From an uncultured Methanosarcinales archaeon (GTDB lineage: Archaea; Nanobdellota; Nanobdellia; Woesearchaeales; JAGWAF01): 55,044 nt of DNA. The stretch spans positions 1 through 55,044 of the forward strand of contig CAYHWL010000002.1 of assembly GCA_964359785.1 (NCBI GenBank). The letters are read 5' to 3'. Of this stretch, positions 5,001-53,433 are shown one piece after another; positions within the stretch are counted from its first letter, which is position 1; every line of letters begins with the position of its first letter. Under the pieces are notes generated by a model. That model was given only the letters and a program-made list of their open reading frames with translations, did not search any database and was not told the DNA's origin. Position numbers and translations under genes: made by a program.

Positions 5001-8000
5001 TTTGGTAAAAGTTTCATAAGTGTCTTCTCCTGTTATCGAGTTCAACTCATCGGTGTATTTTTTTTGATAATCCTCCCCTTTGTTTTCGTTGCTAGCAACA
5101 TTAGTTTTTTCATTGGTCGAGTTATTCTCATTGGTTGTCGGTTTATCTGCAACCAATGCAGTTGTTTTTATCGACTCTGCTTGAGAATTAAACAAAGCCG
5201 CAAACTCTTGTTGTTCTTGTAAATTATTTTCTAAAACGGCTATTTCATTGGCTATGCTATTTTTATTTTCAGGAGTTGCTGTTGCTAATTGTTGTTTTTT
5301 TAGGGTAATGTCTTTTTCTGTTGATTTAGCCCAATTCGTGTGGATTACTGCTTTTTGCGTGTAGGTTTCATAAGTATCTTCTCCAGTAAAAGAATTAAGT
5401 TTATTCGTGTATTCAGCATTGTAATCAACAACATTGCCTTCTTTATTAACAAGTGGCACTTCCTCTGTGTTGTTGGTTGTAGTAGTATTATTTACTGCTA
5501 AAGCTGTATTTTCATTAATTTCTTTTTGTTTTTCCGATTTTAAAACCTCTAAAGAAGTAATTCTTTTTTCATATTTTTCCTTCTCAGTATTATTAGCCTC
5601 ACCTTTTAACTGATTTTTTCTAATCTCAATTTCTTCATCAATACTTTTTATCCATTCTTGATTTATTTTCACAATTAGTTGAGGCTTATCCACTTCATTC
5701 CCATAATTATCGAGTTTTGATAATTCAACACTATACTGTGTGCTATAATCTATTATTTTTCCATTTTCGTCAATAACATTAAACTCATCTTTGTGTTCGA
5801 TTAATTGATAAACTTCTTTATTGGTATTATCTGTAGTTAGTAATTCATCGCTAGATGGATATAATCCCACTAAACCTTCCTTTTCGAAAAAAAGAATATC
5901 ATTTTCTAATTGAAGTTTATTGCCAGGAGTAACTGCTGCAACTGAGCTAGTATTAAGATTGATAGTTGCTAGTGCTGCTTTTGTTATTTCTACCTGATTT
6001 TGAGTATCATCATATTCTTTTTTAGCGATAACTTCTTTTGCTTTTGCATTGTTTCGTTCAAATTTAGAGTCATCAATATCAATCGTTAATGCCTTAATTT
6101 GAGCATCTAGGTCTGCTTTTTCAGTTTTATTTTTTGTAGCTTCTTTTTTAGTTTCTAATTTGTTCACTGTTTCTGTCAATTCTAGCTCTCGATTTAATAA
6201 TGCGGTAGCATCATCTCTGGTTTTGTTATACAATTGTTGTTTTTCTTCCAGTTTTTGGTTTTGAATTTTTTCTTCATTAGCTAATGCCGATTCATTATGA
6301 TAACTTGCTGAAGCAATTTCATCTAATTTTGCTAAGTTATTTTCTGCTTCACTCCTATTTCCATCATTAATATTACTGTTAACTTTTTCTTTTATTGATT
6401 TAACGCTTGTTACATCGCTTTCTCTGTCTGTAACTTCACTATCGAGTATTCTGGCAATGTTTAATGTAGCAACTGCTTCGTTAATTAATTTTGCAGCTTC
6501 TAATTTTTTTTGCTCTGCTAATTCTAATTTTTTATCTTTTTCTGATGCAGAAGTAATTTGTTGTGCTTCGGTTATTAATTTTTCCGATTCGGTATATAAA
6601 TTTTTTGCTTTTAAACTTTTTTGTGAAGCAATCTGATAAGAATAGTTGGCTTGTTCTTTAGATTTATTAGTCTGCTCAATAATTTTATTAGCTTTTTGAT
6701 CAACTGTTTTTATAATTTGTTCGTTCGATAATTCTTTATAATTAGAGATTGGTTGTTCTTGATTTGCTAACACGTTGTTTAAGTTAGTTAACTCATCTTC
6801 GGTTGTGTTAACATCTAACTTTGCTTTTTGCTGTAATATATTTTGAACAACCAACGGGTCGTTGATGTCAAACTCATCAGATTCGTCAAATAAATTTTTA
6901 ACTACTAATTTTTCATTATTTCCTGCTCCAACCAATCTTAACTCTTGTTTTAAAGCCCTAAAACCATCTAGCTTAGGAATTTCTATAGTTGCAGAATGAA
7001 TGGGTGCGTCATTAGTTGTTTCCACTAATAGTTTAAATTTTCCACCACTTTGAGGAAAAACTAGTAAATATTCTCCTGTTTCATTATTGGTTGTATAAAC
7101 TCCATATTTTCTATCTTTTTCAACATCTTTGATAGTGATGGTTGCCGATTTCATGTTAGGATTTGACTCAGCTAAAAAGTAACCTTTAATTACTGAATTT
7201 TCTGCTGGAGGAGCATCTACAGTTACATTGTAAACAGTTAACTCTCCTTGCTGGCTTGCTCTTGAAGAAGCAAAATAGGCTAATTTATTATCTATGTCTG
7301 AAATATACAAAATGTCATCATCTGGTGTGTTTATTGGAAAATCAAGATTTTCTGGATAGGTCCATTTACCTGTAGTTGGATCTAAAGTGGATTTAAAAAT
7401 ATCAAACCCACCCATACTGTTATATCCTTTAGAACTAAAATAAAGTGTTTTTCCATCAGGATGCAAATACGGATATTCATCATCAAACTCGGTATTAATT
7501 TCATCTCCTATACTACTAGGTTTGCTCCATTCACCATCTGGTAGTTTTACAACTTTATAAATGTCTTTTCCAGAAGTACCGCTGGTTCCATAGGAAGAAA
7601 AAACGACCATATTTTTAGCTTCACTCAAATAGATGATAGATGTTTCATTATTTTTTTTATCGAGTTTTGTTTTAAATTCCTCAGGTTTTATAATTATTTT
7701 TCCACCAATACCTTTTAAGTTGTAAAGTCTAAAAAAATCTGTTTCTTTAATTTCTTTTTTACTTAAAACTCCAATATCTGTAATACCTGTCAAAAGTTTT
7801 CCTCCATTTTCACACATCTTAATCTCTCTATCAACCTGATAATCTTGGTGTTCTTTAGTGGTAGTTTTTTCTTTAAATTTATTGTAATTGACAATTGCTG
7901 GTGCAAATTGATAATTATGATGGTAGGCTTTAGCTAGGTAATAAAATGCCACAGGGTCAACTGTTGATTTAGTGGTTGAAAATTTTAAATATTGAATTGC

Positions 8001-8249
8001 TTTTTCTTTGTCTCTTGAACCAAAAAGAATGCATGCACCATATTTGTAATTATAATTAAGGTCTTTTGGGTATAAACTTAAGAGTTGAGAAAAAAGAGGT
8101 AAAGCATCAACATATTTTTTTTCTTGAAACATTAAATTCGCCGAAGTCTTTAGCTCCTCTTCAGATGCATATTGAGCTTGCACACGATTTGTAAGAAACA
8201 ATATCGTTACTATTGAAAATACTATTCTATATAAATATTTTCTAATCAT
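2010..8249 (-). CDS. Giant (2079 aa) secreted TPR / PD40 beta-propeller / coiled-coil protein with three C-terminal SPOR-like repeats
   Basis: Uninterrupted 6.2-kb ORF. N-terminal signal (FLTNRVQAQ), then TPR-like helices, then PD40/TolB-like motifs (YPYLHPDGKTLYFSS..., LAYFASSR). About 1000 aa of E/K/Q/N-rich coiled coil follow, then P(V/I)(V/I)D(Q/K) pentapeptide repeats. The end carries three units of the SPOR-like pattern FKVQIGAF...DAFVVAF, YSIQVGVY...DAFVVAY and FKVKLGEY. Confidence 0.85.
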   Translation of the reverse strand: MIRKYLYRIVFSIVTILFLTNRVQAQYASEEELKTSANLMFQEKKYVDALPLFSQLLSLYPKDLNYNYKYGACILFGSRDKEKAIQYLKFSTTKSTVDPVAFYYLAKAYHHNYQFAPAIVNYNKFKEKTTTKEHQDYQVDREIKMCENGGKLLTGITDIGVLSKKEIKETDFFRLYNLKGIGGKIIIKPEEFKTKLDKKNNETSIIYLSEAKNMVVFSSYGTSGTSGKDIYKVVKLPDGEWSKPSSIGDEINTEFDDEYPYLHPDGKTLYFSSKGYNSMGGFDIFKSTLDPTTGKWTYPENLDFPINTPDDDILYISDIDNKLAYFASSRASQQGELTVYNVTVDAPPAENSVIKGYFLAESNPNMKSATITIKDVEKDRKYGVYTTNNETGEYLLVFPQSGGKFKLLVETTNDAPIHSATIEIPKLDGFRALKQELRLVGAGNNEKLVVKNLFDESDEFDINDPLVVQNILQQKAKLDVNTTEDELTNLNNVLANQEQPISNYKELSNEQIIKTVDQKANKIIEQTNKSKEQANYSYQIASQKSLKAKNLYTESEKLITEAQQITSASEKDKKLELAEQKKLEAAKLINEAVATLNIARILDSEVTDRESDVTSVKSIKEKVNSNINDGNRSEAENNLAKLDEIASASYHNESALANEEKIQNQKLEEKQQLYNKTRDDATALLNRELELTETVNKLETKKEATKNKTEKADLDAQIKALTIDIDDSKFERNNAKAKEVIAKKEYDDTQNQVEITKAALATINLNTSSVAAVTPGNKLQLENDILFFEKEGLVGLYPSSDELLTTDNTNKEVYQLIEHKDEFNVIDENGKIIDYSTQYSVELSKLDNYGNEVDKPQLIVKINQEWIKSIDEEIEIRKNQLKGEANNTEKEKYEKRITSLEVLKSEKQKEINENTALAVNNTTTTNNTEEVPLVNKEGNVVDYNAEYTNKLNSFTGEDTYETYTQKAVIHTNWAKSTEKDITLKKQQLATATPENKNSIANEIAVLENNLQEQQEFAALFNSQAESIKTTALVADKPTTNENNSTNEKTNVASNENKGEDYQKKYTDELNSITGEDTYETFTKKAEIHSNWAKATEEEITTKKQQLATATPENKNSIANEIAVLENNLQEQQEFAALFNSQAESIKTTALVADKPTTNENNSTNEKTNVVSNENKAELTKEEKAKEEANLTVNNLNAKEDEFSNLKYNNNFKYESTQSRKTIEAIVELKNQARTLDEEANVLLNTANTAKTKEEKDALIIKVEALKTQSNNKQEEIAKIYETANRTEFYNNQAVLSKLKTANKDPFSNDVLMTELFVEEADNYFAEAKVKREDAIKAENITAKENALQKAYELEMKALEKQNKAIQQLAKGDTENLYAVTNENTATTNETTTNTSNTNEKINTNNNQPTNVVPVATNTEITKADQEVILNLKPEEITTIKNSEDYKVYAELKKENRRLTKEAEVEYVEAEKLKQEAKDQQQLGVSLKAMVDGASSEEDKAKKLAQIEKLNKMIAENEAKSSELKQSAVDKENKAKDANEKSNFILINADENASKSIAAIEKTETFEPQFLADAMNRTTVPIVDQPVVDKPIIDKPVVDQPVVDKPIIDKPVVDQPIIDKPVVDQPVVDKPVVDQPIIDKAVVDQPIIDKPIVDQPIIDKPIVDQPVKITPTNIDEIPTVLNNSIFVINNTNEAVYNENKKIPVSPKLPEGLVFKVQIGAFRNPIPQNHYKGFAPIMAEDAGNGITRYTAGFFKTFNMANEAKNSIRSIGYSDAFVVAFMNGKRININEARAMQNGNAVDEGNFTVNTTNNTNNKENVVNNNNTNTTNKTVVTEEVKDGVSTDVRNIGGVFYSIQVGVYSKPVTANQLNNVSPLNSERTTNGLIRYTSGVYKNLADANIAKDKIRALGIADAFVVAYNGGTKITVTEATQLLSSGSSTVNTPINNNPTIETPIIEKSPTIETPVIEKNPIEETPVTNNTTGYGAKADLKLEFKVKLGEYEEDVPVEDAGLFLQLTGRGVKNYEENNKTVYTIGSFPDYNSALDLQIEMKELGVKKPETIVFKDGVQIKIEEALELMKNNQ
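3256..3512. repeat. 15-bp periodic tandem repeat encoding about 17-19 P(V/I)(V/I)D(Q/K) pentapeptides, inside the giant CDS
   Basis: ggttggtcaac(t/g)a(t/c)agg(t/c)ttatcaataatt units are visible on the + strand. The protein reads PVVDKPIIDKPVVDQPVVDKPIIDK... Confidence 0.9.
4728..5435. repeat. 2 x 354-bp (118-aa) in-frame tandem duplication inside the giant CDS
   Basis: gttttcgttgct... starts at 4728 and again at 5082. A core of about 145 nt (4801-~4946 and 5155-~5300) is identical by eye, and the flanks are diverged. The protein repeat is TGEDTYET(Y/F)T.KA.IH.NWAK...KKQQLATATPENKNSIANEIAVLENNLQEQQEFAALFNSQAESIKTTALVADKPTTNENNSTNEKTNV. Confidence 0.9.
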
Positions 8250-8319: not shown

Positions 8320-11300
8320 TTATTCATCAAAATCTCTTAAAAAATCTGTTTTCTTTCTTTCTGTCGAATACATAAACTGGTAAGGCTCTTGTCCTTTTTC
8401 AGCTTTTGATTTTCTTTTATCAGGTTTTGTTTCAGTAATAGCTGTATTAAATTCTACATCAGAAGATATTGCTTGCATTACACCTCTTGTATAAGAGAAG
8501 AAATACCAATTATTTTGGTTTATTTCTAAATATATAGTTAAAATGTCTCCACTTCTTTTCTTTATCAACTCAACTTTTCCATCTACATATTTATTAATTT
8601 GTTTGTTATAAATATTACTTATTCCAATCTTACTAAAAGATTGATAAGATTTACTCTCGTTGTTCCATTTCATTTTTAAATCGTTAAAAACTAGTGTCTT
8701 TTTAAAAGACTCTGGTAATTTTTTAAATTCTCCATATAAACTTGCCTGAGCAATCAACTTATCGGCTTCTTCTTTTCCAAGTATTTCTCTGAGTCCTTTT
8801 TCAAATGTTGGTCTGTCTAATTTAACAGGGTCTAATGTGCTAGCTTCTTGCAAATTTTTAGTCATCTTTTTCATCGCATCTTCTGTAAAGAAAAAATCGG
8901 TTAGCATTACTAAGTCAAAAATTACCTCGTCATCTATCTGATTATGGTCAATAGCTCCTGCAGCTTGAATGTTAACTTGTCCAGTTTCTCCACCTAAATC
9001 TATTTTTCCTTCCCCATAAACTTTACAATATTTTGTATTTAAACTCAAGTAATTACCACTAAATGACATTTCTTGCAATTTGTCTTTATTAGAAATTTTA
9101 TATTCTTCTTTTTCTTTGTCATAATACAAATAACCAATTGCAGGAAGGACATCTATGTGACTATATTTTTTCTTGTTATTTAAAAAAGTAGAATAAATCC
9201 CTAAAGAATCTGGGCTTAAGAAAACGCTTGCAATTAAAGGATTACCAACTACATCTTTTGTTGTGCTGTCAATTGGTATATATATTTCTTCTGGATTAAT
9301 CTGAGATTCAAAACTAAACCAGTTCCTGTCTAATAAATTGCAATCGTGAAAAATTCTAGCGAACCCATTAAAAGTTAAAAATTCATTGTTAGCAAATAAT
9401 TTAATTTTTCCATAAAATTCATAGTTTGGACTTAGCGTAAAATTCGAGGTGTCTTTGATGTCAGCTGAAGCATATGTTTGTCCAGAAGAATCAACACCAA
9501 TGTTTTGTAAATATATTGTTTGCGACTTATTAATCTCATCGACATAATCTACGTAACCACTACCAGCATATTTTTTCTTTCCAAATACATTAACGGTAGA
9601 ATTGTAAATAATGTGATTTTGCGTAATGTAACTTGCAATAATTTTTGAATTGTTAAGTGTTCGCATTTTTGCCTTTTTTTCAATAACAACCTTATTGCTA
9701 TCAGGATATACCATTACATCAGCAACATTTAAAAATTTAACTCCATCCGCATAAATAATTTTTCGCTTAATATCATATTTTGCTTTGATAGAATAGAAAC
9801 TTAATGAATCTTGTTCTGGATGTACAGAAATAAACTGAGCTCCTTCCAAATTAACACCAGAAGCATCTGTTTCTTTGGCTGCACCAGCAGAAAGTTCTAT
9901 ATCATCATTATCCATGTACCATTTAAATTCATCCATGTAACAAATGTATTGCATCGGATCAAAGGAAATATGAGAGCCTCCTCCATTAGACCTAAACTGA
10001 CCGTATCTTCCATCAAAAGTTACATAAGCGTTAACATTTACCGTAGAAAATGCTAGTGCTTCAGCATCAACATTTCCATCATCTTTTAATCTAAAATCAG
10101 CTGTGTCCGATTTAAAATCCTTAAAATTAAATTGTATCAAATTGGCTTCCAATTCAGCTTTTTGAAATTCAAAAATCCCTGTACCTGATAGTCCATCAGG
10201 TTGAATCATGGTTTGGCCATGCATATATGATTTCAAATCGTACATGGCAATTGGTTTATTAATTACTTTATGAATCATAATATCTTTTGTAGGGAACCAT
10301 CTTGTGAAAACATTTTCTCCCTCTACTGGAGGAAATTCTATTGCTACTGGGCTTTCTTTAACATTAAAATGCTGGGCAATGGCATTCATAGAATCTGGGA
10401 AAAAAATAAAATCGTTTGAAAAAGTAGTAGAAGTGATGTATTCTAATTTTCCGTTACCTCTTAATCCTTCATTACTCAACCTAATAGTATCTTTGTATGT
10501 TCCTTTTCCACCATACATTGGAAAACCTTCAGCAGGAGTTTTCCTTATAAAACCTAATGATTGGTCAGGTTGCAAAGTTAGCGTTTCATCAAAATCAGGA
10601 AAAATACCAGCAGATAACATTGTTCCCTTAAATTTTAATTGACTATTGTCGAAATTATCGAGACTATCAATTGAAAAAGGCTCCACATGAAAATAGAATT
10701 CATCTTTATTATAAACACCACCTTGTATGGATTTTTTGTTATAAAAAACGTAAGAATCTTTATAACTGTTGATAATTGGATATTCATCAGCTTTTTTAAC
10801 ACCTGATTTATTATTAGGTTTATCAATTAACAAATCGCCATTAATGTTTTCTATCACAGTTTTAACAGGTCTTATAATTGGTTTTCCTTCAATATCTAGT
10901 TTGCCAGTTTCTGCATATATTCTTAAAGAATCTACATTGGGCATTATTATTTTAAAGTCGTCGTATTTGAATGAAAAATTTCTACCCATAATGTCAAATC
11001 TTCCAGCTTGAACAACACCGCTAAAATCGAAATCTCTATTCTTTTTTAGGGTAATTTCTTTTTTGGAAGGATAAATTATTACTTCCTGCGAATCACTCAC
11101 GTTAACACTATTTACTCCTCTCATTTGTAAATCATAATTTAGCAAACTTAAAGTTGCATTGCTGTTGTTATTAGTATTAGAATAAAATCCTATCACATCA
11201 TAATCTACATTACCACCACTTGCTTTTACCCAATTAATTAATTTGTCTTTTATAATAAAATATTTACCATCGTAATTATAATTGATAAATCCTTTGTTGG

Positions 11301-12774
11301 ATAAATCCAGCAGCATAGTTTCCAATTGAGCATAGGATTTTAAAGTAAATTCTGCTAATTGTTCATTCGTGACGTAATTGGTATCCAATTTTTCGGCTAG
11401 TTTTTTTATATTATACAATGGATGTGATGTTTGAAGGGTCATCATTTGCATGTATTCATCTTTTTTAAAATAGTTGGAAGAGATAAAAGTAGCCTCCGTT
11501 TTAGTTCCTCCCTCCATGTTTTTAAATTCAATCATGGGCGAATCTACTTTCCATGTTAACGATTCAAAATCCATATCTACCTGATGATACGAGTTGAAGT
11601 AAGGAGTAATTTTAATTCCTTTATGGTCCCTAATTAATGTTACACTTCTGTCTGCGAGAAAAAATTTAAACGAAAGACCAGGGTGAAAAATAGAATCCTC
11701 TTTAATGTATATGGTTGCTGATGCCATTTGAGAAACAATTCGTTCTGGTTTGATAATAAAAGTTTTAGCTGCCATTTTTAAAAATGGGACGTTTTTTTTA
11801 TAAAAAATAACATACGCATCTTGGTCTTGATTTCCTCTTCCAATCACTTCTCTACCATTTAAAGAAAACCCGCCAATATAATCAACTCCTTCAGAAATTC
11901 CTGACAAAAGGAGTGTTGCATCATAAGAATTAAATCTAGGATATGTTGCTTTCTCTTCATCTACATTAGCTAATACTTTTTCTTCTATTGAACCTTTTAA
12001 AGGGCTTTTAAAATAATAATAATCGTAAAAAATGACATCTTTTATACCGTAACTTGGAGTTTTAAAGCTTATTTCGTATTGATTTATTTCTGCATAAACA
12101 GAATCAGAAGGAAACCCCGCACGTTCCCACGTTATTTTTCCACCTTCTCCATACCATTTATTTTCGGTAGGATAATAAACCCCTTTTGTATTTAAAATAA
12201 CTGAACTGTCACCTTTCGAATAACAAGTTAAGGTGAGTGCCTCAAAACTAATGGTAGGTAAGCTGTCAAATCCAAAAGTATAGTTACCATTGTTGGCTGC
12301 CCATGAGTTTGCAGCCGATTTATACAAGAGGTTTTCTGTAAATAAATCGTTACAAGACTTCAAATATTCGGTAAAATTTTTAGTATCTTTTTCTTTAATT
12401 AGGGTTATAATTATTTTTTGCCAACTCTCAAAACTATTTTCAGTCTGGTATTTACTGTTTACAAATTGAGAAACTGTAAATAAATAATTTCTAAAATCTG
12501 GGAAAGCTCTTTTTTTGTTTTTCAACATTAAATTGGCAACTTTATATACTCCATTTCTTTCATTATCAGAAAACTTTCCTCCAAACCAAGTCCAAGAAAA
12601 TTCATCCATCACAATTTTACCGTCTTCCTTTCTTGAATAAGTTAGAAATTCTTCCATTTCTTTGAAAAACAAAGAGGAATCAGCAGAAAATTCTTTTATT
12701 TTAGTTTGAGAATAACTAGAAAAAGTCATCACCAAACAAAATAGGGATATCAAGTATTTATATAATTTATTCAT
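8320..12774 (-). CDS. Large (~1484 aa) secreted protein of unrecognised function
   Basis: Uninterrupted 4.4-kb ORF. I prefer ATG 12774, which gives the signal-like MNKLYKYLISLFCLVMTFSSYSQ. That ATG overlaps the prmA stop as ATGA. No motif recognised. Confidence 0.8.
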   Translation of the reverse strand: MNKLYKYLISLFCLVMTFSSYSQTKIKEFSADSSLFFKEMEEFLTYSRKEDGKIVMDEFSWTWFGGKFSDNERNGVYKVANLMLKNKKRAFPDFRNYLFTVSQFVNSKYQTENSFESWQKIIITLIKEKDTKNFTEYLKSCNDLFTENLLYKSAANSWAANNGNYTFGFDSLPTISFEALTLTCYSKGDSSVILNTKGVYYPTENKWYGEGGKITWERAGFPSDSVYAEINQYEISFKTPSYGIKDVIFYDYYYFKSPLKGSIEEKVLANVDEEKATYPRFNSYDATLLLSGISEGVDYIGGFSLNGREVIGRGNQDQDAYVIFYKKNVPFLKMAAKTFIIKPERIVSQMASATIYIKEDSIFHPGLSFKFFLADRSVTLIRDHKGIKITPYFNSYHQVDMDFESLTWKVDSPMIEFKNMEGGTKTEATFISSNYFKKDEYMQMMTLQTSHPLYNIKKLAEKLDTNYVTNEQLAEFTLKSYAQLETMLLDLSNKGFINYNYDGKYFIIKDKLINWVKASGGNVDYDVIGFYSNTNNNSNATLSLLNYDLQMRGVNSVNVSDSQEVIIYPSKKEITLKKNRDFDFSGVVQAGRFDIMGRNFSFKYDDFKIIMPNVDSLRIYAETGKLDIEGKPIIRPVKTVIENINGDLLIDKPNNKSGVKKADEYPIINSYKDSYVFYNKKSIQGGVYNKDEFYFHVEPFSIDSLDNFDNSQLKFKGTMLSAGIFPDFDETLTLQPDQSLGFIRKTPAEGFPMYGGKGTYKDTIRLSNEGLRGNGKLEYITSTTFSNDFIFFPDSMNAIAQHFNVKESPVAIEFPPVEGENVFTRWFPTKDIMIHKVINKPIAMYDLKSYMHGQTMIQPDGLSGTGIFEFQKAELEANLIQFNFKDFKSDTADFRLKDDGNVDAEALAFSTVNVNAYVTFDGRYGQFRSNGGGSHISFDPMQYICYMDEFKWYMDNDDIELSAGAAKETDASGVNLEGAQFISVHPEQDSLSFYSIKAKYDIKRKIIYADGVKFLNVADVMVYPDSNKVVIEKKAKMRTLNNSKIIASYITQNHIIYNSTVNVFGKKKYAGSGYVDYVDEINKSQTIYLQNIGVDSSGQTYASADIKDTSNFTLSPNYEFYGKIKLFANNEFLTFNGFARIFHDCNLLDRNWFSFESQINPEEIYIPIDSTTKDVVGNPLIASVFLSPDSLGIYSTFLNNKKKYSHIDVLPAIGYLYYDKEKEEYKISNKDKLQEMSFSGNYLSLNTKYCKVYGEGKIDLGGETGQVNIQAAGAIDHNQIDDEVIFDLVMLTDFFFTEDAMKKMTKNLQEASTLDPVKLDRPTFEKGLREILGKEEADKLIAQASLYGEFKKLPESFKKTLVFNDLKMKWNNESKSYQSFSKIGISNIYNKQINKYVDGKVELIKKRSGDILTIYLEINQNNWYFFSYTRGVMQAISSDVEFNTAITETKPDKRKSKAEKGQEPYQFMYSTERKKTDFLRDFDE

Positions 12775-13604
12775 TTTTTTATTAAATGTATCATTAACCA
12801 ATCTTTCTTCTCTTCCGTATAACTATTTTTTAAACCTAATTTTGCAGCTTCCTCTAGTAATAAATTTCTATCAACATTAAAAAAACCACTTAATAGTAAA
12901 TCTCCATTGGTAGAAAGAGATTTAGCATATTTACTCATATCCTTTAAAAGAATGTTTCTATTAATATTTGCTAAAATAACATCAAATTTGTTATCTTTTA
13001 ATAATTCTGCTCCACCTTGTTTTACAACTATCTCCTTACAATTATTATTCCTAATATTTTCGATGGTATTGTTATATGCCCATTCATCAATATCAATCGC
13101 TTCAATGTATTTTGCATTTTTCATTTTAGCTAAAATAGCCAATACACCTGTTCCACAACCCATGTCAAGCACTTTTTTGTTGGTAACATCTAACGCCAAT
13201 AACCGTTTTATCATTAAATAAGTGGTTTCATGATGGCCAGTTCCAAAAGACATTTTTGGGTCTATGATAATATCAAATTCAATATCAGTAGGTTTTTCGT
13301 GAAATTTTGCTCTGATGTAACACCTATTTTCAACATTAATTGGATTAAAACTTTTTTCCCAAGCTTCATTCCAATTTTGATCTTCAATTGTTTTAGTTGA
13401 ATAGGCTACTGTAAATTCCGAATTATTAATAATTCTTAAGTTTTTAACAGCTTCCAATTTAAATTGATTAGACTGAATATAAGCTTCTAACCCATTTTCA
13501 GTTTCAACAAAACTTTCAAATCCAATTTCTGAAAGCTCTGCTACTAATATGTCTCTGCCAACTTCTAATGGTTTTATTGTTGCAGATAAATTGATATAGT
13601 TCAT
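12771..13604 (-). CDS. prmA: Ribosomal protein L11 methyltransferase
   Basis: 277 aa with the PrmA pattern FGTGHHETTYLMIKRLL and the SAM motif VLDMGCGTGVLAILA. Confidence 0.9.
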   Translation of the reverse strand: MNYINLSATIKPLEVGRDILVAELSEIGFESFVETENGLEAYIQSNQFKLEAVKNLRIINNSEFTVAYSTKTIEDQNWNEAWEKSFNPINVENRCYIRAKFHEKPTDIEFDIIIDPKMSFGTGHHETTYLMIKRLLALDVTNKKVLDMGCGTGVLAILAKMKNAKYIEAIDIDEWAYNNTIENIRNNNCKEIVVKQGGAELLKDNKFDVILANINRNILLKDMSKYAKSLSTNGDLLLSGFFNVDRNLLLEEAAKLGLKNSYTEEKKDWLMIHLIKK

Positions 13605-46139: not shown

Positions 46140-47255
46140 ATGAAAAAAATAATATTTACAATTGTTACCACTTCCCTTATTATTGCTTGCAATTCGAATG
46201 AGGAAAAAATAGCTGAACAACCAAAAGTTGACCAAACTTCTGGTGCCACCAAAAAATCGGCTATTCATTATCCAGAAGAAAAACATTTAAAAAATGTGAA
46301 ACAAATTACTTTTGGTGGCGATAATGCTGAAGCATACTTTAGTTTTGATAATCAACAGTTGGTCGTGCAAATTAAAAATGAAGCTTGGGGAATTGCTTGT
46401 GACCAAATATTTTTATTGGATGTTGATTCTACCTACAAACACAGCCGTCCAAAAATGATAAGTACTGGCAAAGGAAAAACAACCTGTTCCTACTTTTTAA
46501 AAGGCGATACTACATTTGTTTATGCCAGCACACACTTAGCTGATGCAAATTGTCCTTCAACACCCGAAAAAAGAGCTGACGGAAAATATGTGTGGCCTAT
46601 TTATGAAAGTTTCGACATTTTTGTTGCCGATTTAAATGGTAAAATCTTAAAGCAATTAACCAACACGCCCGGTTATGATGCAGAACCAACCGTTTCGCCA
46701 AAAGGTGATAAAATAGTTTTTACCTCCATCCGTTCTGGTGATTTAGAACTTTTTACCATGAATATTGATGGTTCTGAAGTGAAACAATTAACAAGTGGTT
46801 TAGGTTATGATGGTGGAGCTTTTTTTTCACCCAATGGCGAAAAAATTATTTTTAGAGCTTCTCGTCCAAAAACTGACGAAGAAATTAAAAATTACAAAAA
46901 ATTATTGGCAGAAGGTTTGGTACAACCTACCGAAATGGAATTATTTACTTGCAATGTGGATGGAAGCGACCTCAAACAACTTACCAACTTAGGTGGTGCC
47001 AATTGGGCTCCTTTCTTTCATCCTTCTGGCAAAAAAATACTTTTTTCGTCCAATCATACTTCTAAAAAAGGATATCCTTTTAATTTGTTTTTAATTAACT
47101 TGGATGGTTCTGGATTAGAACAAGTAACCTATGATGGTGTTTTTGATGCTTTTCCGATGTTTAGCAGCGATGGTAAAAAATTGGTTTTTAGCAGCAACCG
47201 AAACAATGGCGGCAACCACGATACCAACTTGTTTATTGCCGATTGGGAAGATTGA
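46140..47255 (+). CDS. PD40/TolB-like beta-propeller lipoprotein
   Basis: Lipobox TSLIIACNS and repeated PD40 motifs (DAEPTVSPKGDKIVFTS, GGAFFSPNGEKIIFRAS, APFFHPSGKKILFSS, FPMFSSDGKKLVFSS). Confidence 0.85.
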   Translation: MKKIIFTIVTTSLIIACNSNEEKIAEQPKVDQTSGATKKSAIHYPEEKHLKNVKQITFGGDNAEAYFSFDNQQLVVQIKNEAWGIACDQIFLLDVDSTYKHSRPKMISTGKGKTTCSYFLKGDTTFVYASTHLADANCPSTPEKRADGKYVWPIYESFDIFVADLNGKILKQLTNTPGYDAEPTVSPKGDKIVFTSIRSGDLELFTMNIDGSEVKQLTSGLGYDGGAFFSPNGEKIIFRASRPKTDEEIKNYKKLLAEGLVQPTEMELFTCNVDGSDLKQLTNLGGANWAPFFHPSGKKILFSSNHTSKKGYPFNLFLINLDGSGLEQVTYDGVFDAFPMFSSDGKKLVFSSNRNNGGNHDTNLFIADWED

Positions 47256-47261
47256 TTTTTT
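47100..47261 (+). repeat. Left copy of a 162-bp direct repeat (the functional 3' end of the PD40 gene plus 6 nt)
   Basis: Hand alignment with 49317-49478 gives 148 of 162 identical positions. Eleven of the 14 differences are synonymous third-position changes. Confidence 0.9.
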
Positions 47262-47414
47262 GACTATTCGATACTTGTTTTTATATCAATACCCCTCTTA
47301 AAACAATTCTAATAAAATCTGTTTTCTGCTATTTTTTTACTTTTTTGAAGTTTGTGCTACGATTACTGCTGTCATAGGCTGTCGTTCTTGTCTGTCGTGT
47401 CGTTGGCGCTTTGG

Positions 47415-47579
47415 CTATTGTGTCGGCCTATTCTTTTTAAAGTTCTCTGCTTGTTCAACTATTTCTACATATACTTCATCAGGCTTACGAGTAATCGAAA
47501 TACCTAAGTGATGGGGAAATCCTTCTTGCCCCAACAATTCGGTAAACGATTGTTCTAAACTTGCTTCTGTAAACTTCAT
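47415..47579 (-). pseudogene. hsdR: 5' fragment of a type I restriction enzyme R subunit gene (hsdR); only about 40-50 N-terminal codons remain
   Basis: Hand translation gives MKFTEASLEQSFTELLGQEGFPHHLGISITRKPDEV..., which matches the conserved HsdR N-terminus (MxFxExxLExxxxxxLxxxGY). The frame then runs into a stop after 54 codons. Its ATG overlaps the AbiEii stop as ATGA. Confidence 0.6.
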
Positions 47580-48532
47580 TCAATTCTTTTTATTAATTCT
47601 TCAAAGCATTTCGCTACATCATTTTCATCAGGAATTGGTCTATATGCTAAAGCGGATAGTTCAGTTTGATATTTTTCTGTTAATTGTTTCCAGATGGTTG
47701 AAAAATCATTTACCAAGGGATATTCAGCAATCAATTTTTTTTGCCAACCTTTTGGCTTTTCAAACATTTCTCTATCGTGTTGCAGAATGGTATCAAATTG
47801 TTTTTTAAACGAATCGGATGCTACAAATTCAATACACTCAGGATTTTTCATCAAGTAATACAAATCATAAAAGTGTCTTATTTTTTCGGAGATACTTTCA
47901 ACAGTATTTTCCTTAAATGAAAATCGAATTAACGATACCATCTTTTCCAATAGCGTTTGTTCTTTGCTCAATACGTTCACTTCAAAGGATTGGAGATTGT
48001 ATTCTTCAATGTATTTTTCATTGCTTGTTTGCATCAAAAAGTCAAACACCATACTCTGAATGGTAAGTCGTTGATAAGGGAAAGGATTAGCAAACGAGTT
48101 TATTTCAACAATGAGTTTGTTATTTGCATTGCCTTTTTCAGTTGTAACATATTCAAAAACAGATTTTCTGAATCTTGAACCTTTACTTGTTACACCTTCC
48201 ATTTGCACTTCGGTTAAATCAGGTGTTATTTCTTTTTCAATAGTTCGGATGATGGTTTTAATCTCATTACCTGTTTTACCCTTGTCGTTTATGATGGCAA
48301 TATCTACATCCTCCGAAAATCAATCTATCAGATTATATCCTTTTGATAGCGATGTGCCTCCTTTAAAAACAGATTCATCAACATATTTACTTTTCGCCAA
48401 ACGATTCAACACCAATGTTATCCAGTAATCTTTTTCTACAAATTCCAACTTAATATCTAAGTGTTGCGATGCAGATCTCAGAGTGCTGGAAAATAATTTT
48501 ATGTCGTGGTGCAGCCTCATAATATATTCCAT
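47576..48532 (-). pseudogene. AbiEii/AbiGii-family nucleotidyltransferase toxin, interrupted by one in-frame TGA (complement of 48320-48322)
   Basis: Track ORFs 48320..48532 and 47576..48208 are in the same frame. Reading through gives ...EKDYWITLVLNRLAKSKYVDESVFKGGTSLSKGYNLID*FSEDVDIAIINDKGK.... The family motif is GGT.L...Y.LI.RFSEDxD, so the stop replaces the expected Arg. Confidence 0.8.
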
Positions 48533-49257
48533 TTTTCGGTGGTGGATATTGCTTTCGCTGTACCTGTTAGTTTATATTTAGTAATTGGATTCAATGATTT
48601 GAAAAGTGACTCTGTTAAATTACTTTTTTGCAACTGCTCTAACAAAGCACCTAATAAAGCCCTTGTAGCAGGCGGATATTTTAATACCAAGCGAACCAAG
48701 GTATTGATTTCTTTGTCCGTAAAGTTTTTGATAATAGCTAAAAACCGCTTACAGGATGCTTCTATACCTGCATCAGGTATTTTTTTGATGTAGCGAATGG
48801 CATCCAGCAACTGCAACAAAGGAATATTCTCTTTGGTGATGGTGTTTTTTTGCTTTACAAAAGCAATCGTATAGCGTTCTCTTTTAAAATTGGGGCGAAC
48901 CTGATTTTTGCCAATTTGTATGGTATTGCTTACCTGTGTGGTTAAACCCAATTGATTGTAAATGCTGTAACCTGTGAGATAACCTGTTATTTTTCCATTT
49001 TCTTCCAGCAAGTCTTTTACTGTTTGTGCCTGATTGGGTTGAAGGTTGCCAAAGGGCGTATTTTCGGGTTTGTAATATTTGCCTTTGGATAGTTTGGCAA
49101 TTTTGCCCGATTCCACCATACGGTTCAATGCTTTTATTACCGCTTCTTTCTTGTTCACCTCTGTAGTAAAGTCGGCATAGGTGAATACATAACCCTTAGG
49201 GAGCCTATCTATGGTAAATGCTATGTATTCAACTGTTTTCATTCTATTTATTACCAT
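48517..49257 (-). CDS. AbiEi-family (type IV TA) antitoxin / wHTH regulator
   Basis: The N-terminus ...LPKGYVFTYADF...AVIKALNRMVESGKIAKLSKGKYYKP fits the AbiEi_4 winged-helix pattern. The gene overlaps the AbiEii start by 16 nt. An alternative ATG lies at 49242. Confidence 0.75.
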   Translation of the reverse strand: MVINRMKTVEYIAFTIDRLPKGYVFTYADFTTEVNKKEAVIKALNRMVESGKIAKLSKGKYYKPENTPFGNLQPNQAQTVKDLLEENGKITGYLTGYSIYNQLGLTTQVSNTIQIGKNQVRPNFKRERYTIAFVKQKNTITKENIPLLQLLDAIRYIKKIPDAGIEASCKRFLAIIKNFTDKEINTLVRLVLKYPPATRALLGALLEQLQKSNLTESLFKSLNPITKYKLTGTAKAISTTEKWNIL

Positions 49258-49303: not shown

Positions 49304-49316
49304 TTTTGAAATTTGA

Positions 49317-49478
49317 TTGGATGGTACAGGTTTAGAGCAAGTAACTTACGATGGTGTTTTTGATGCTTTTCCTATGTTTAGTAGTGATGGTAAAAAGTTA
49401 GTTTTTAGCAGCAACCGAAACAATGGTGGTAACCACGATACCAACTTGTTTATTGCCGATTGGGTAGATTGATTTTTT
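49317..49478 (+). pseudogene. Orphan right copy of the PD40 gene 3' end (51 codons + stop + 6 nt) with no start codon
   Basis: Encodes LDGTGLEQVTYDGVFDAFPMFSSDGKKLVFSSNRNNGGNHDTNLFIADWVD*. An in-frame TGA lies immediately upstream (49314-49316). Confidence 0.85.
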
Positions 49479-49597
49479 AACCCATCCATTTTTCTCTTTT
49501 GTTTCTTATCCTCAATGTTGCTTGATAGATAATACCGATTATACATTCAATATAGTCCACTTTCTGTGTACTATTTTCATGTTATATCGGCATTAAC

Positions 49598-49645: not shown

Positions 49646-49723
49646 TATAATTTGCTAAACATGAGCACAAAGAGTTTACAAAACATAAAAAGCCCATTTA
49701 ACGATTTATGGTATATTTTTTTC

Positions 49724-49731
49724 TATTTTTG
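49724..49731 (+). promoter_or_regulatory. Bacteroidetes-type -7 box TAttTTTG, within a 13-mer TTTGAAATAAATA shared with 50597-50609
   Basis: Matches the TAnnTTTG consensus of Bacteroidetes sigma-A promoters. It lies 115 nt upstream of ATG 49846. Confidence 0.45.
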
Positions 49732-49755
49732 AAATAAATATACCTTGATAGTTTT

Positions 49756-49845: not shown

Positions 49846-50382
49846 ATGGGACTATTTGACAAAATAAAAACTAAGACTGACGAGTACGCAAGAGTAATCG
49901 AATGGACACCACAATGGGACACTGGAGCACCAATGCCTCAAGTGTTTTCTAACGGACACAAGACTTTTTTAATCTATTTAATCAATGAGCCTGACCCGAA
50001 CTGGGACGGAACTTATGTGAATATGATTGACAATACAAGCGAAACAACATATCCATTAGCTCTGGTTGAATTTAGCGGACACACTTTTCGTTTTGGAATA
50101 GCAAATGACGAAGTGTTTAGTGGACTTCCTCTTTGGGACAAAGGACTTGAAGGTTATACAGCACACATCATCGAGAACTCGACTTGGATAACTGAATTAA
50201 AAAATATTAACAAAGTTCATCCATATTACAACGAGGACAGGTGGAAGGAAAAAAAACACTTCACGCTATTGTTTCATGACGAAATATTTGAAGTGATTGC
50301 AACAGACTATAAAATTGAAACATTCAAAACGACCTTTGGACAATTGGCGACAGAAGTAGTGAAACGAATGAATGGAAAATAA
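49846..50382 (+). CDS. Orphan 178-aa cytoplasmic protein, function not recognised
   Basis: Clean ORF with no signal peptide. It is visibly richer in G+C than the surrounding genome. It lies in the island between the AbiE remnant and the PHP-ATPase gene. Confidence 0.7.
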   Translation: MGLFDKIKTKTDEYARVIEWTPQWDTGAPMPQVFSNGHKTFLIYLINEPDPNWDGTYVNMIDNTSETTYPLALVEFSGHTFRFGIANDEVFSGLPLWDKGLEGYTAHIIENSTWITELKNINKVHPYYNEDRWKEKKHFTLLFHDEIFEVIATDYKIETFKTTFGQLATEVVKRMNGK

Positions 50383-50547: not shown

Positions 50548-50565
50548 ATCCGTCAGCTGACGGAT
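50548..50565. promoter_or_regulatory. Perfect 18-bp palindrome ATCCGTCAGCTGACGGAT just upstream of the promoter-like box of the PHP-ATPase gene
   Basis: Read directly. Its centre lies about 40 nt upstream of the -7 box at 50593-50600. Confidence 0.5.
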
Positions 50566-50592
50566 GATGATTTGTAGTAACTGTTTTTTAGT

Positions 50593-50600
50593 TATATTTG
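50593..50600 (+). promoter_or_regulatory. Bacteroidetes-type -7 box TAtaTTTG
   Basis: Matches TAnnTTTG. It lies 80 nt upstream of ATG 50680 and is followed by the same TTTGAAATAAATA 13-mer seen at 49728-49740. Confidence 0.45.
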
Positions 50601-50679
50601 AAATAAATAACACTAAAAGGTGTACATATAAACAAGTTAATCGGCAATATTGTAGGACGACACAACAAAGAAAAGTAGA

Positions 50680-52824
50680 ATGAAAATAGACATTCATACA
50701 CATACGAAAAAGATAAAACAGGGCGACTCCGAAAATCGCAATATTGACGTTGACAGATTTGCCGAAATCATCAAAGAAACTGATGTAAAAATTTTAGCAA
50801 TTACGAATCACAATCATTTTGACTACAAACAATACAAAGACTTCAAAGAAAGTGTTGACGGAGTTTGCCAAATTTGGCCAGGTGTAGAATTTAATATACT
50901 TGAAGAGGAACGTAGAGCACATTTAATTACAATAGTGAATCCTAAAAATGCAGCCGCTTTTGGCAAAAAAGTAAATGAGGTTATTGGCTCTACTTCCGCA
51001 GACACTTTTACAATTAGTATTGATGATGTTGTGAATAAGTTTGCAGGGTTTGACACAATTTTCATTGTCCACTATCAATCAAAAAAGCCCAATTTAATTG
51101 ACCAAGACATTGATAAACTTTTGAAAAAGGTTTCTAACTCAAAAAGAGTTTTAAAGGAAGCTTCTAATTCTATTTCGGCAGGCATCTATATCAATCACGG
51201 ACACAACTCTATCCACGGTTCTGACGTTCAAAATTGGAGCGACTATGTAAGTAATTTCAAAAATTTACCTGAATTAAGATTGCCAGTTGAAAGCTTTGAG
51301 CAGTTTTGTTTGTTGTTAGACAAAGACGACACAACAATCAATACCATTCTTGACAAAAAAACTAAAGAAACAATTCAGATAAATCCGTTCAATAGTGCGG
51401 CAGAAATAATGGACATTGATATATACAATGACATAAATATCCTATTTGGCTCAAAGGGAACAGGAAAAACAGACATTTTAAAGGCACTTTCAAAACATTA
51501 CAATGGCAAAGGTTTCAAAACAAAAGTCTATGAATCCAATTCTAAAAAGATAGATGATGTTTTTGACCTTAAAGGCTCACAACTAAAAATTGATATTGAA
51601 CAATTGGGTATTGACAGTTGCTCCACCGAACTGACTTCTCTAAGAAATGCGACAGAAAAAGAAGTAACGAGTTTGTCAAAATATTTGCTTTACTATTCTG
51701 CTGATGCTACAAATAAAATATCCAAATACATCAAGGTTGACAAATTCACGCCTCTTGATGAGAAATCACCTAAAAGAAGTTTTGAAGACATAAAGAATAA
51801 TTTGAAAATATTTCAGGAGTTCAAAGAATATTATGCCGTTGATGCAAAACTAAAAGAGATTATTGGAGAAGAACTTTTAACCGAATTAGACAGTGTTGTA
51901 AATAAAATTTTAGACAAGATAAATACAGAATCTGGAAAACGATTTACGAACTTCAAAAGCATTAGTTTCTTTAATAAATTAGTGAAACTATTTGTTAAAG
52001 AAATTTCAAAAAAAACAGGACAACCCGAAAAGCCTACAAAAACTGGTTTTTCAGAATATGCAACCAATAGGATTGGCATTGAAAAAGATGTCAAGAAAAT
52101 TCTTGAAAATATCTCTAAAAAAATTGCACCAGTTATTGAAGAGGCTGGCAATTTAGGTGACAAAGGAAAACTGTATTGTCAAATAAATTTACTTCTACAA
52201 AACGGAAAGGTTTCGGACGTTAATTACAAGCACATTAACAGCACCACAAAAATTCCGCAAAAGTCGGTAGCTGCTAAAATAGAATTGATTTCAAAACACA
52301 TTTACACCAATACACTGTTTGAAAAAATTGATGATCTTAAAAAAGTTGAAAGTTCAGATACCGTTTCATCAATTAATGATTTATTGCTTTTTTATAAACA
52401 CTTTACTTTAGATAGTGAGTTTTATACCCCCTCAAATGGCGAATCTTCAATGGTTCTCTTGCACAATGAACTAATGAAAGACGAAGAAATTTATCTCATT
52501 GACGAACCCGAAAAAAGTTTAGGAAATGACTACATAAGCGAAGTAATTGTTCCCTTGATAAAAGAAAAAGCCAAAAGCGGCAAAAGAGTAATTATTGCAA
52601 CACACGATGCAAATATTGCGGTTAGAACATTGCCTTACAATTCCATTTATCGTGAACACGACATAAATGGTTATTACACATATTCAGGCAATCCATTTTC
52701 TAACAACTTAATTTGTAGTTCAGGTAAAAAACCAAATTTGGATTGGAAGCTAATTAGTATGAAAACTTTAGAAGGCGGCAAAGACGCCTTCGGTGAAAGA
52801 GGAAAAATATATGGCAACACATAA
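50680..52824 (+). CDS. PHP-domain phosphoesterase fused to an ABC/SMC-type (AAA_21/23-like) ATPase; candidate defence effector
   Basis: N-terminal PHP motifs MKIDIHTHT, AITNHNHF, WPGVEF and FIVHY. C-terminal half has Walker A LFGSKGTGKTDILKAL, a signature-like PSNGESSM, Walker B EIYLIDEPEKSLG and H-loop IIATHDANI. Confidence 0.8.
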   Translation: MKIDIHTHTKKIKQGDSENRNIDVDRFAEIIKETDVKILAITNHNHFDYKQYKDFKESVDGVCQIWPGVEFNILEEERRAHLITIVNPKNAAAFGKKVNEVIGSTSADTFTISIDDVVNKFAGFDTIFIVHYQSKKPNLIDQDIDKLLKKVSNSKRVLKEASNSISAGIYINHGHNSIHGSDVQNWSDYVSNFKNLPELRLPVESFEQFCLLLDKDDTTINTILDKKTKETIQINPFNSAAEIMDIDIYNDINILFGSKGTGKTDILKALSKHYNGKGFKTKVYESNSKKIDDVFDLKGSQLKIDIEQLGIDSCSTELTSLRNATEKEVTSLSKYLLYYSADATNKISKYIKVDKFTPLDEKSPKRSFEDIKNNLKIFQEFKEYYAVDAKLKEIIGEELLTELDSVVNKILDKINTESGKRFTNFKSISFFNKLVKLFVKEISKKTGQPEKPTKTGFSEYATNRIGIEKDVKKILENISKKIAPVIEEAGNLGDKGKLYCQINLLLQNGKVSDVNYKHINSTTKIPQKSVAAKIELISKHIYTNTLFEKIDDLKKVESSDTVSSINDLLLFYKHFTLDSEFYTPSNGESSMVLLHNELMKDEEIYLIDEPEKSLGNDYISEVIVPLIKEKAKSGKRVIIATHDANIAVRTLPYNSIYREHDINGYYTYSGNPFSNNLICSSGKKPNLDWKLISMKTLEGGKDAFGERGKIYGNT

Positions 52825-53107
52825 AGCAACAATTGAGAGAAAAGAAAAAAGTGCAACTTTAAAACTTGCAATTGACAAAACCGTGTTAGACATTGTTCTG
52901 ACCGAAGACAAACCGAATGATGTAAAGTCGGTATTTAATAAACTTTTGGAATTACTCAAAAGTGGAGTATTTGACTTTACTTTATCTGACGAAAAGGAAG
53001 ACTTGTATCATCACATTTGTAAAGAATACATTACTCAATTGAACGCAGAACTTAAAAGCACATTTCAAGAATTAAAGGACAACGGACTATTAAAAACGAA
53101 AAAATAA
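52811..53107 (+). CDS. 98-aa helical acidic/basic protein, translationally coupled to the PHP-ATPase gene
   Basis: ATG 52811 lies inside the last 14 nt of the upstream gene (ATGGCAACACATAA). The protein begins MATHKATIERKEKSATLKLAIDKTVLDIVLTEDKPNDV... and matches no motif I recognise. The track ORF starts earlier, at 52793. Confidence 0.6.
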   Translation: MATHKATIERKEKSATLKLAIDKTVLDIVLTEDKPNDVKSVFNKLLELLKSGVFDFTLSDEKEDLYHHICKEYITQLNAELKSTFQELKDNGLLKTKK

Positions 53108-53433
53108 ATACTGCTGCTAACACAGGTAACTGTTGCACAACTTCCAAAAAAGGTACTATTTTAGTAAAAATGGCTTTATTTTAGCTGTTTTAAGAGCGGC
53201 TAAATTTCGATTAACAAAAATTTACTTCAAAATTTAATTAGCACCTCAAAAACTGAGAAGGGAGAAAAGCAGAGATATTTTGCTCTTTTTTACCATCCTT
53301 ACAGAATAAACTACCAATAGATAATTTTATTTTTCTACAATTTTTGTTATTTCTATTTTTACTTAGAAAAAAAAGATTAATATTGATTTCATCTTAAATA
53401 TTTATACATTACAAAAAAATAAACTAAAAGACT

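Follow-up and report, generated by a model that had tools for sequence, protein, structure and literature searches.

Near one end of a 55,044-nucleotide (nt) stretch of DNA from an uncultured archaeon (contig CAYHWL010000002.1, assembly GCA_964359785.1, listed under Methanosarcinales and placed by GTDB in the Woesearchaeales), hereafter the window, lie two overlapping genes: a large one encoding a fusion of a PHP phosphoesterase domain with an ABC/SMC-type ATPase, and a small partner. A first-pass annotation, made from the sequence alone, had singled the pair out as a candidate defence module consisting of a 714-amino-acid (aa) open reading frame (ORF) and a 98-aa ORF starting in its last 14 nt, and both ORFs are indeed present (Table 1). 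Y711 and G712 of the large protein are encoded by TAT-GGC, and these two codons supply the ATG of the partner.

This arrangement is not peculiar to the archaeon. Related loci were gathered from genome, metagenome and assembly collections (a scan of genome contigs with the single protein gave four useful loci, and a metagenome scan with an alignment yielded far more), and the partner was counted over the 85 loci in which the large gene is covered to its 3′ end. In 85/85, down to 34% identity in the large protein, an ORF of 94–110 aa homologous to the window's small protein begins with an ATG inside that end. The overlap was 14 nt at most of these loci, the ATG again being drawn from the TAT-GGN codons of a conserved C-terminal Tyr-Gly, and 8 to 26 nt at the others, with the longer overlaps in more distant clades. 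Identity of the small protein to the window copy tracked that of the large protein (Spearman 0.94), dropping somewhat faster. The small ORF is therefore a real, conserved and co-inherited partner, as the annotation had supposed from its appearance, and the overlapping arrangement suggests that translation of the two genes is coupled.

Domains of the large protein and fold of its partner

Motif conservation was read from an alignment of 71 diverse full-length homologues. The PHP and ATPase motifs quoted in the first-pass annotation (DIHTHT, ITNHNHF, PGVEF, GSKGTGKT, SNGES, IYLIDEPE and ATHD) all occur in the large ORF, and all fall at invariant or nearly invariant columns. Such columns in the N-terminal domain comprise D4, H6, H8, T9, N43, H44, G68, E70, H131, E160, G180 and D182, among which the candidate metal ligands (H6, H8, H44, E70, H131 and D182) are invariant; D4, H81 and E160 are likewise conserved. 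The PHP assignment is based on these residues, on matches to Pfam PHP (PF02811) in 15/41 relatives (best 1.9e-6) and on the predicted fold. An AlphaFold2 (AF2) model of the large protein (pLDDT 82.5) has three parts, namely an N-terminal domain, a split ATPase and a C-terminal extension, and a Foldseek comparison of the first of these (residues 1 to about 225) with the PDB returned as best matches RNase AM (YciV; 7ug9, 9etk) and the COG0613 phosphoesterases 2yb1 and 3e0f/3o0f (E 3e-5 to 4e-4, probability 1.00). Those enzymes differ from the window protein in being stand-alone housekeeping enzymes lacking an ATPase, and share 12–14% sequence identity with its PHP domain.

The remainder of the protein matched the heads of SMC, cohesin, condensin, Rad50, RecN, JetC and AriA and the ATPase chain of the retron IA complex. 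Its ABC/SMC-type ATPase set is complete, with Walker A, signature, Walker B (DE) and H-loop in a head split by a helical insertion; N253, just ahead of Walker A, is also conserved, and the SNGE motif aligns with the SSGE signature of AriA. The insertion holds a 50-residue helix (397–446) and, in the model, resembles a short coiled-coil arm of the SMC, Rad50 and AriA kind.

The predicted fold of the small protein (AF2, pLDDT 84) comprises three strands, a helix, a strand and a long helix, with conserved residues K39, F42, N43, L65, E72, Y73, L77, N78 and E80. No significant match to this fold was found in the PDB or BFVD, and the sequence matched no Pfam, NCBIfam, PHROGs or PADLOC family and no helix-turn-helix; the partner is probably not a transcription factor. 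The family is acidic (median isoelectric point 4.7). The window's own small protein is a near-neutral outlier at 6.8.

Table 1. Features of the gene pair and of its surroundings in the window. Positions count from the first letter of the window.
Feature	Position	Strand	Evidence or remarks
Large gene, 714 aa, PHP phosphoesterase-ABC/SMC-type ATPase fusion	50680..52824	+	ORF call, homologue alignment, AF2 model
PHP domain, residues 1 to about 225	50680..51354	+	Invariant columns, Pfam PHP in relatives, Foldseek
Walker A GSKGTGKT, G257-T264	51448..51471	+	Invariant: G257, K263; conserved in ≥90%: K259, G262
Helical insertion between ATPase lobes, residues about 300-480	51580..52119	+	AF2 secondary structure, Foldseek
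ABC signature-like motif SNGE, S585-E588	52432..52443	+	S585 and G587 invariant
Walker B IYLIDEPE, I604-E611	52489..52512	+	D608 and E609 invariant
H-loop T641-H642	52600..52605	+	Invariant
Conserved C-terminal extension, residues 651-714, ending in LEGGKDAFGERGKIYGNT	52630..52824	+	W689, E698-G699-G700, F704, R707 and Y711 conserved
Small partner gene, 98 aa	52811..53107	+	ATG at 52811; 264 homologues detected
14-nt overlap ATGGCAACACATAA	52811..52824	+	3′ end of large gene = start of partner
Terminator-like hairpin and T-run	53180..53204	+	73 nt past partner stop codon
TATATTTG, Bacteroidota-type -7 promoter-like box	50593..50600	+	80 nt upstream of large-gene start codon
18-bp perfect palindrome ATCCGTCAGCTGACGGAT	50548..50565	.	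One copy in window; zero expected by chance
178-aa ORF, no family match	49846-50382	+	Third-position G+C raised (0.35)
AbiEi, 246 aa, intact	48517-49257	-	
AbiEii N-terminal part, 70-aa ORF	48320-48532	-	
AbiEii C-terminal part, 210-aa ORF	47576-48208	-	
54-aa ORF, HsdR fragment	47415-47579	-	First 39 residues 49-59% identical to type I HsdR N-termini

Relation to Ppl, TrlF and other ATPase-coupled nucleases

Ppl (Gao et al. 2020; PADLOC PDLC02208) and the TrlF family of AAA-like ATPases (NCBIfam NF045780) have the same domain order as the window protein, an N-terminal PHP domain followed by an ABC/SMC-type ATPase with a helical insertion. Ppl has been reported as a single-gene system (PMC12904381), and the E. 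coli protein as a 3′–5′ single-stranded DNA exonuclease that is inhibited by bound nucleoside triphosphates (NTPs) and released by NTP depletion and 3′-OH ends (stated without a reference in the review PMC12904381; the likely primary source is Xu et al., Mol Cell 2026, as cited in PMC13434339). Homology between these proteins and the large protein lies in the signature/Walker B/H-loop lobe and the C-terminal tail, that is, the last ~120–145 residues: BLASTP against Xanthomonas TrlF gave 30% identity over residues 567–711, hhalign gave a probability of 97.5%, and a tail of the form LEGGxxAFxxRxxIYG is common to both. The N-terminal 560 residues showed no similarity to TrlF beyond the P-loop in pairwise or profile comparison. 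The window protein is also shorter, TrlF and Ppl being about 885–900 aa long (170–185 residues longer). One relative, P0486, matches only the C-terminal part of the Ppl model (model positions 771–864 of 894, 7.6e-7). The connection to Ppl drawn in the first-pass annotation is thus real as regards domain order, C-terminal ATPase lobe and tail, but remote, and by sequence comparison the large protein is a shorter relative of Ppl and TrlF with the same domain order rather than a member of their family.

The two families differ, moreover, in gene content. Three TrlF/Ppl-type plasmid genes (884–899 aa) were examined and, unlike the window family, none has an overlapping partner ORF, so that the description of the pair as a distinct two-gene variant is a fair one. 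TrlF-type genes resemble the window family in being plasmid-borne as well, and 2/3 of those examined adjoin BREX or methyltransferase/helicase genes. In the Photorhabdus TRL operon, from which TrlF takes its name, trlF is followed by trlR (79 aa) and then by trlG.

The design of a PHP–ATPase gene with a second gene is not itself unrecorded, because PADLOC already lists PDC-M49, a candidate A>>B cassette nominated on the ground that it occurs embedded in BREX, DISARM or type I restriction-modification (R-M) systems (Payne et al., bioRxiv 10.1101/2024.01.29.577857). The window pair, two adjacent genes on the same strand in the order A>>B, has the form of that definition, and lies ~3 kb from an hsdR remnant. 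PDC-M49A was the best PADLOC match of the large protein and spanned it almost completely (residues 2–712 against model positions 3–670 of 674), but weakly (96.8 bits, 3e-28). As the best score among 65 diverse family representatives was only 2.3e-36, the PDC-M49A seeds represent a sister clade. PDC-M49B was matched by none of 22 diverse small partners, the window's included, at E≤10, and PADLOC 2.0.0 would probably not call the window locus, assuming that both genes must match. A literature search found no paper naming PDC-M49.

For the ATPase, the closest solved chain by sequence is AriA of PARIS (family-profile E 4.7e-12), which has the same head-plus-arm fold; no Ppl-named chain was among the PDB sequence matches listed or the top 50 Foldseek matches. 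Like GajA, PtuA, LmuB, HEC-01A/02A and the ATPase of the retron IA complex, it belongs to a general design in which an ABC ATPase works together with a nuclease. In the window family, however, the nuclease is an N-terminally fused PHP domain, rather than a Toprim, HNH or other nuclease on a separate or C-terminal module, and the partner is a protein of ~100 aa that lacks catalytic motifs and is not the effector.

Distribution and genomic setting

An exhaustive phmmer search of 1.84 billion representatives recovered 802 clusters at 50% identity (E<1e-3), 198 of them at E<1e-30, and nearly all of the 802 were about 700 aa long and matched from end to end. Members were found in Bacteroidota (Flavobacterium, Sphingobacterium, Algoriella, Myroides, Maribacter, Paludibacter and Cyclobacteriaceae), Bacillota (Blautia, [Ruminococcus] torques, Megamonas, Clostridium and Staphylococcus aureus) and Pseudomonadota (Photobacterium). 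Plasmids of S. aureus, Photobacterium and Clostridium carry the pair, and the partner stands beside the large gene on the S. aureus and Photobacterium plasmids as it does elsewhere. On the S. aureus plasmid the large protein is 28% identical to that of the window, the overlap is 11 nt, and the partner matches the small-protein profile at E 1.7e-14; this large protein matched neither the PDC-M49A nor the Ppl model at E≤0.001. On plasmid pCOL52-A5 (locus L092) the pair occupies 4962–7368 and has IS257, a DUF4238 gene and two type I toxins of the Fst kind as its neighbours.

Viral sequences contributed little. No family match was found in 50,697 deposited phage genomes, and IMG/VR held only seven family loci; this rarity on viral contigs and absence from deposited phage genomes speak neither for nor against a defence role. 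At one of the IMG/VR loci a 692-aa relative with 23% identity is followed by an overlapping ORF of ~100 aa (L109:7675–7980), the similarity of which to the partner is not significant (E 0.01). The overlapping two-gene architecture may reach past the limit of sequence comparison.

For the non-redundant loci, as many as three ORFs to the left and three to the right of the pair were clustered. Because 286 such ORFs fell into 267 clusters, there is no conserved third gene, a candidate rejected on this ground, and the large and small genes are supported as a self-contained two-gene unit. The first-pass annotation had held that conserved housekeeping contexts would speak against its proposal; the flanks proved instead to vary, and to include R-M, Lamassu, AbiE, toxin-antitoxin (TA), Mrr, integrase and transposase genes, as well as plasmid settings. 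One locus carried a Lamassu system with IS21 fragments, and this was also the sole locus with dnaA as a neighbour; others carried a serine recombinase with ART-PolyVal, a tyrosine integrase, insertion sequence (IS) elements with Zeta and HipA, HigB with Mrr, or a ResIII helicase. Eco57I-type methylase and BsuBI/PstI R-M genes were likewise among the annotated neighbours. DNA methyltransferase families accounted for at least nine family matches among 143 neighbours, and methyltransferase models dominated a PADLOC scan for defence neighbours ranked by single hidden Markov models (HMMs). No conserved link to a replication or repair operon was found among the loci examined. These data show a mobile cassette, one that passes between unrelated genomic surroundings, between plasmids and between phyla.

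Variant P0486, named after [Ruminococcus] torques and listed in 349 assembly blocks, lay in every context examined (L097–L102, gut-type metagenome contigs) at the end of an islet of Vsr, C5 methylase (Dcm), Eco47II endonuclease and DUF6602 genes, between tuf and a yitT-like gene. In two Sphingobacterium genomes a 385-aa ORF (L008:12500–13657 and L103:10470–11627), which has no Pfam match, directly follows the pair, and this may reflect shared ancestry of the two loci.

In the window itself, the decayed AbiE pair and hsdR fragment noted by the first-pass annotation are present nearby. The decayed gene of the AbiE pair is its toxin, since AbiEii is split and AbiEi is intact, and the adjoining 54-aa ORF, judged by its similarity to HsdR N-termini, is what survives of a type I R-M system. 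A 195-nt direct repeat (47088–47282 and 49305–49499, 86% identity, most mismatches being in third codon positions) copies the last ~55 codons and stop of a PD40-repeat (TolB-like) gene at 46140–47255. Between the two copies lies a 2.2-kb remnant with the AbiE genes and the hsdR fragment, ahead of the PHP–ATPase pair, which is outside the repeat. It looks as though an island once inserted at the 3′ end of the PD40-repeat gene and left this scar; no integrase is left. Homologues of the 178-aa ORF just upstream of the pair were found only on Fulvitalea (40% identity) and Paraburkholderia plasmids, and neither it nor the AbiE genes nor any other neighbour in the window had a homologue in any of 114 related loci. 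Elsewhere in the window lie two very long adjacent ORFs on the minus strand (2079 aa at 2010–8249 and 1493 aa at 8320–12801). An Rfam scan of the window gave no match.

The first-pass annotation had further credited the pair with its own TAnnTTTG box and palindrome, and with a G+C content above that of the core genome. The palindrome ATCCGTCAGCTGACGGAT is real and the only one of its kind in the window, placed 166 nt past the stop of the 178-aa ORF and 115 nt before the large gene, and it scores as terminator-like on both strands. The box TATATTTG is also present where described, and the 25 nt around it (50585–50609) resemble 49716–49740 upstream of the 178-aa ORF (84%). However, upstream of 74 related loci, among them copies 82–87% identical, there was no such palindrome and no box at a fixed position; both are therefore local features, and a conserved operator or promoter for the pair was rejected. 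Most probably the palindrome serves locally, as a terminator working in both directions or a hairpin at a boundary, rather than as a conserved operator of the module. The window contains 73 copies of TAnnTTTG where 100 would be expected, so that the motif is by itself uninformative; a local promoter at the box is plausible. The hairpin downstream of the partner likely ends the two-gene transcript. The base composition claim was not borne out: the pair has a G+C content of 0.322 and the whole window 0.316, which places the pair at the 60th percentile among segments of its size, and third-position G+C alone is slightly raised (0.29 against mostly 0.19–0.26 in other long ORFs).

Possible functions of the gene pair

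We favour the view that the pair is a two-gene conflict cassette, directed against phages or plasmids, of the nuclease plus ABC-ATPase type: a shorter sister of single-gene Ppl/TrlF in which the partner is an obligate regulatory subunit. We put the probability of this reading at about 55%. The defence role that the first-pass annotation proposed is backed as far as computation reaches, and we infer it from genomic context and relatives. Model-library searches, which the first-pass annotation had suggested, add the full-length, though weak, match to the defence candidate PDC-M49A. Under such a scheme the ATPase would form a head-to-head dimer around nucleotide in the manner of SMC, Rad50 and AriA, and would keep the PHP nuclease in check, the latter being perhaps a DNA-end exonuclease by analogy with E. 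coli Ppl. Infection, by shifting the nucleotide pool or exposing DNA ends, would then free the nuclease to attack foreign DNA that is being injected or replicated. The partner, small and in most cases acidic, would be made in step with the large protein and would sit as an obligate subunit on the ATPase/arm module, setting the activation threshold as an inhibitor or sensor-adaptor. A more specific version, in which the partner belongs to an undescribed family of regulatory subunits without detectable relatives and acts as the infection-sensing switch of the PHP nuclease–ATPase machine, for example as an acidic plug or guard displaced by a phage product or a DNA end, is offered tentatively, as possible though doubtful.

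Several observations weigh against the conflict-cassette view. The Ppl model did not match the window's large protein at E≤0.1, although it matched the Xanthomonas TrlF protein, used as positive control, at 4.9e-35, and the TrlF model NF045780 gave 60.4 bits against a cut-off of 350, over residues 312–648 only. The Pfam scan of the large protein gave no PHP match and only a marginal match to ABC_tran. The DxH ligand motif of the PHP domain is without its final His in the window sequence (GSDVQNW). The closest PHP folds are those of RNase AM-type enzymes, the RNase AM/COG0613 group of 5′–3′ exoribonucleases and pAp phosphatases, so that substrate and polarity may differ from those of Ppl. Some copies are flanked by core or unannotated genes only, and the context evidence is a listing of flanking genes.

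These points leave room for other explanations, one of them a TA or addiction module. The PHP–ATPase nuclease would be the toxin and the small acidic protein its direct protein antitoxin, the cassette would stabilise plasmids or islands, and phage defence would be at most a side effect. Carriage on S. aureus, Photobacterium and Clostridium plasmids, amid TA genes and mobile elements, fits this, as does a partner that is small, acidic and strictly co-inherited, and the partner model bears a weak likeness to a HicB-like antitoxin, although at E 0.02 this is not significant. Antitoxins, however, are usually encoded first and made in excess, whereas here the small gene lies downstream and is probably coupled, so that its product should at best equal the supposed toxin in amount. 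Typical toxins are also simpler than a protein of 714 aa in which an entire ATPase switch is conserved, the three TrlF/Ppl-type genes examined do without a partner ORF, and the nearest characterised relative, Ppl, is a single-gene defence protein (PMC12904381). On balance we regard an addiction module as rather unlikely. The small protein might instead be a positive structural subunit, a clamp or adaptor that assembles the ATPase dimer or loads it on DNA in a kleisin-like role, and not an inhibitor. The head and arm of the ATPase are SMC/Rad50-like, and a partner that is universal in the ~700-aa family and missing beside the 170–185-residue-longer TrlF and Ppl would suit a function supplied in trans; yet the small-protein HMM finds nothing within TrlF/Ppl proteins, and a partner-like domain hidden in them was accordingly rejected. 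Weak matches to the PADLOC LmuC model (3/10 partners scanned singly, 15–17 bits; 4/22 in another scan) also favour such a role, but homology to LmuC or kleisins was rejected, as hhalign against the MC3-family (PF20131) middle gene of the Lamassu locus L006 gave a probability of 0.5% and the AF2 model has no winged-helix or kleisin-like fold. A structural role of this kind thus seems distinctly improbable.

Least credible is a housekeeping or accessory enzyme of nucleic acid repair or processing, for example an end processor resembling SbcCD or RecN, or an RNA trimmer resembling RNase AM, with its island location incidental. The folds nearest the two domains (RNase AM and pAp phosphatases for the PHP domain, Rad50 and RecN for the ATPase) and the loci lying between core genes with no recognisable defence neighbour would accord with it. 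Against this stand a patchy distribution across phyla with flanks that are almost never conserved, the plasmid copies, the R-M, Lamassu, AbiE and TA genes adjoining the pair, and the want of any conserved association with operons for replication or repair; the only dnaA gene seen beside a pair is accompanied by Lamassu and IS21 fragments. We consider such a role very improbable.

That nucleases coupled to ABC ATPases are common in defence was already known, Ppl has been characterised, and a related two-gene cassette has been catalogued as a candidate. What is new is a large family of ~700-aa proteins, distinct from Ppl/TrlF and with no more than marginal matches to the models searched in PADLOC, Pfam and NCBIfam, that is invariably paired, through a conserved overlapping start, with a small protein for which there is no fold match. 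If mainly an addiction module, the pair would bear on plasmid stability in staphylococci. If a defence system, it would add a common and compact two-gene type, and the same nuclease–ATPase chassis, found in Ppl without and here with a separate small subunit, would allow a test of how such nucleases spare the host genome. Should the partner be an infection-sensing switch, it would represent a new control of a Ppl-type nuclease, operating across hundreds of lineages that include common human-gut Lachnospiraceae and S. aureus plasmids, and might explain how the shorter family manages without the extra 170–185 residues of Ppl.

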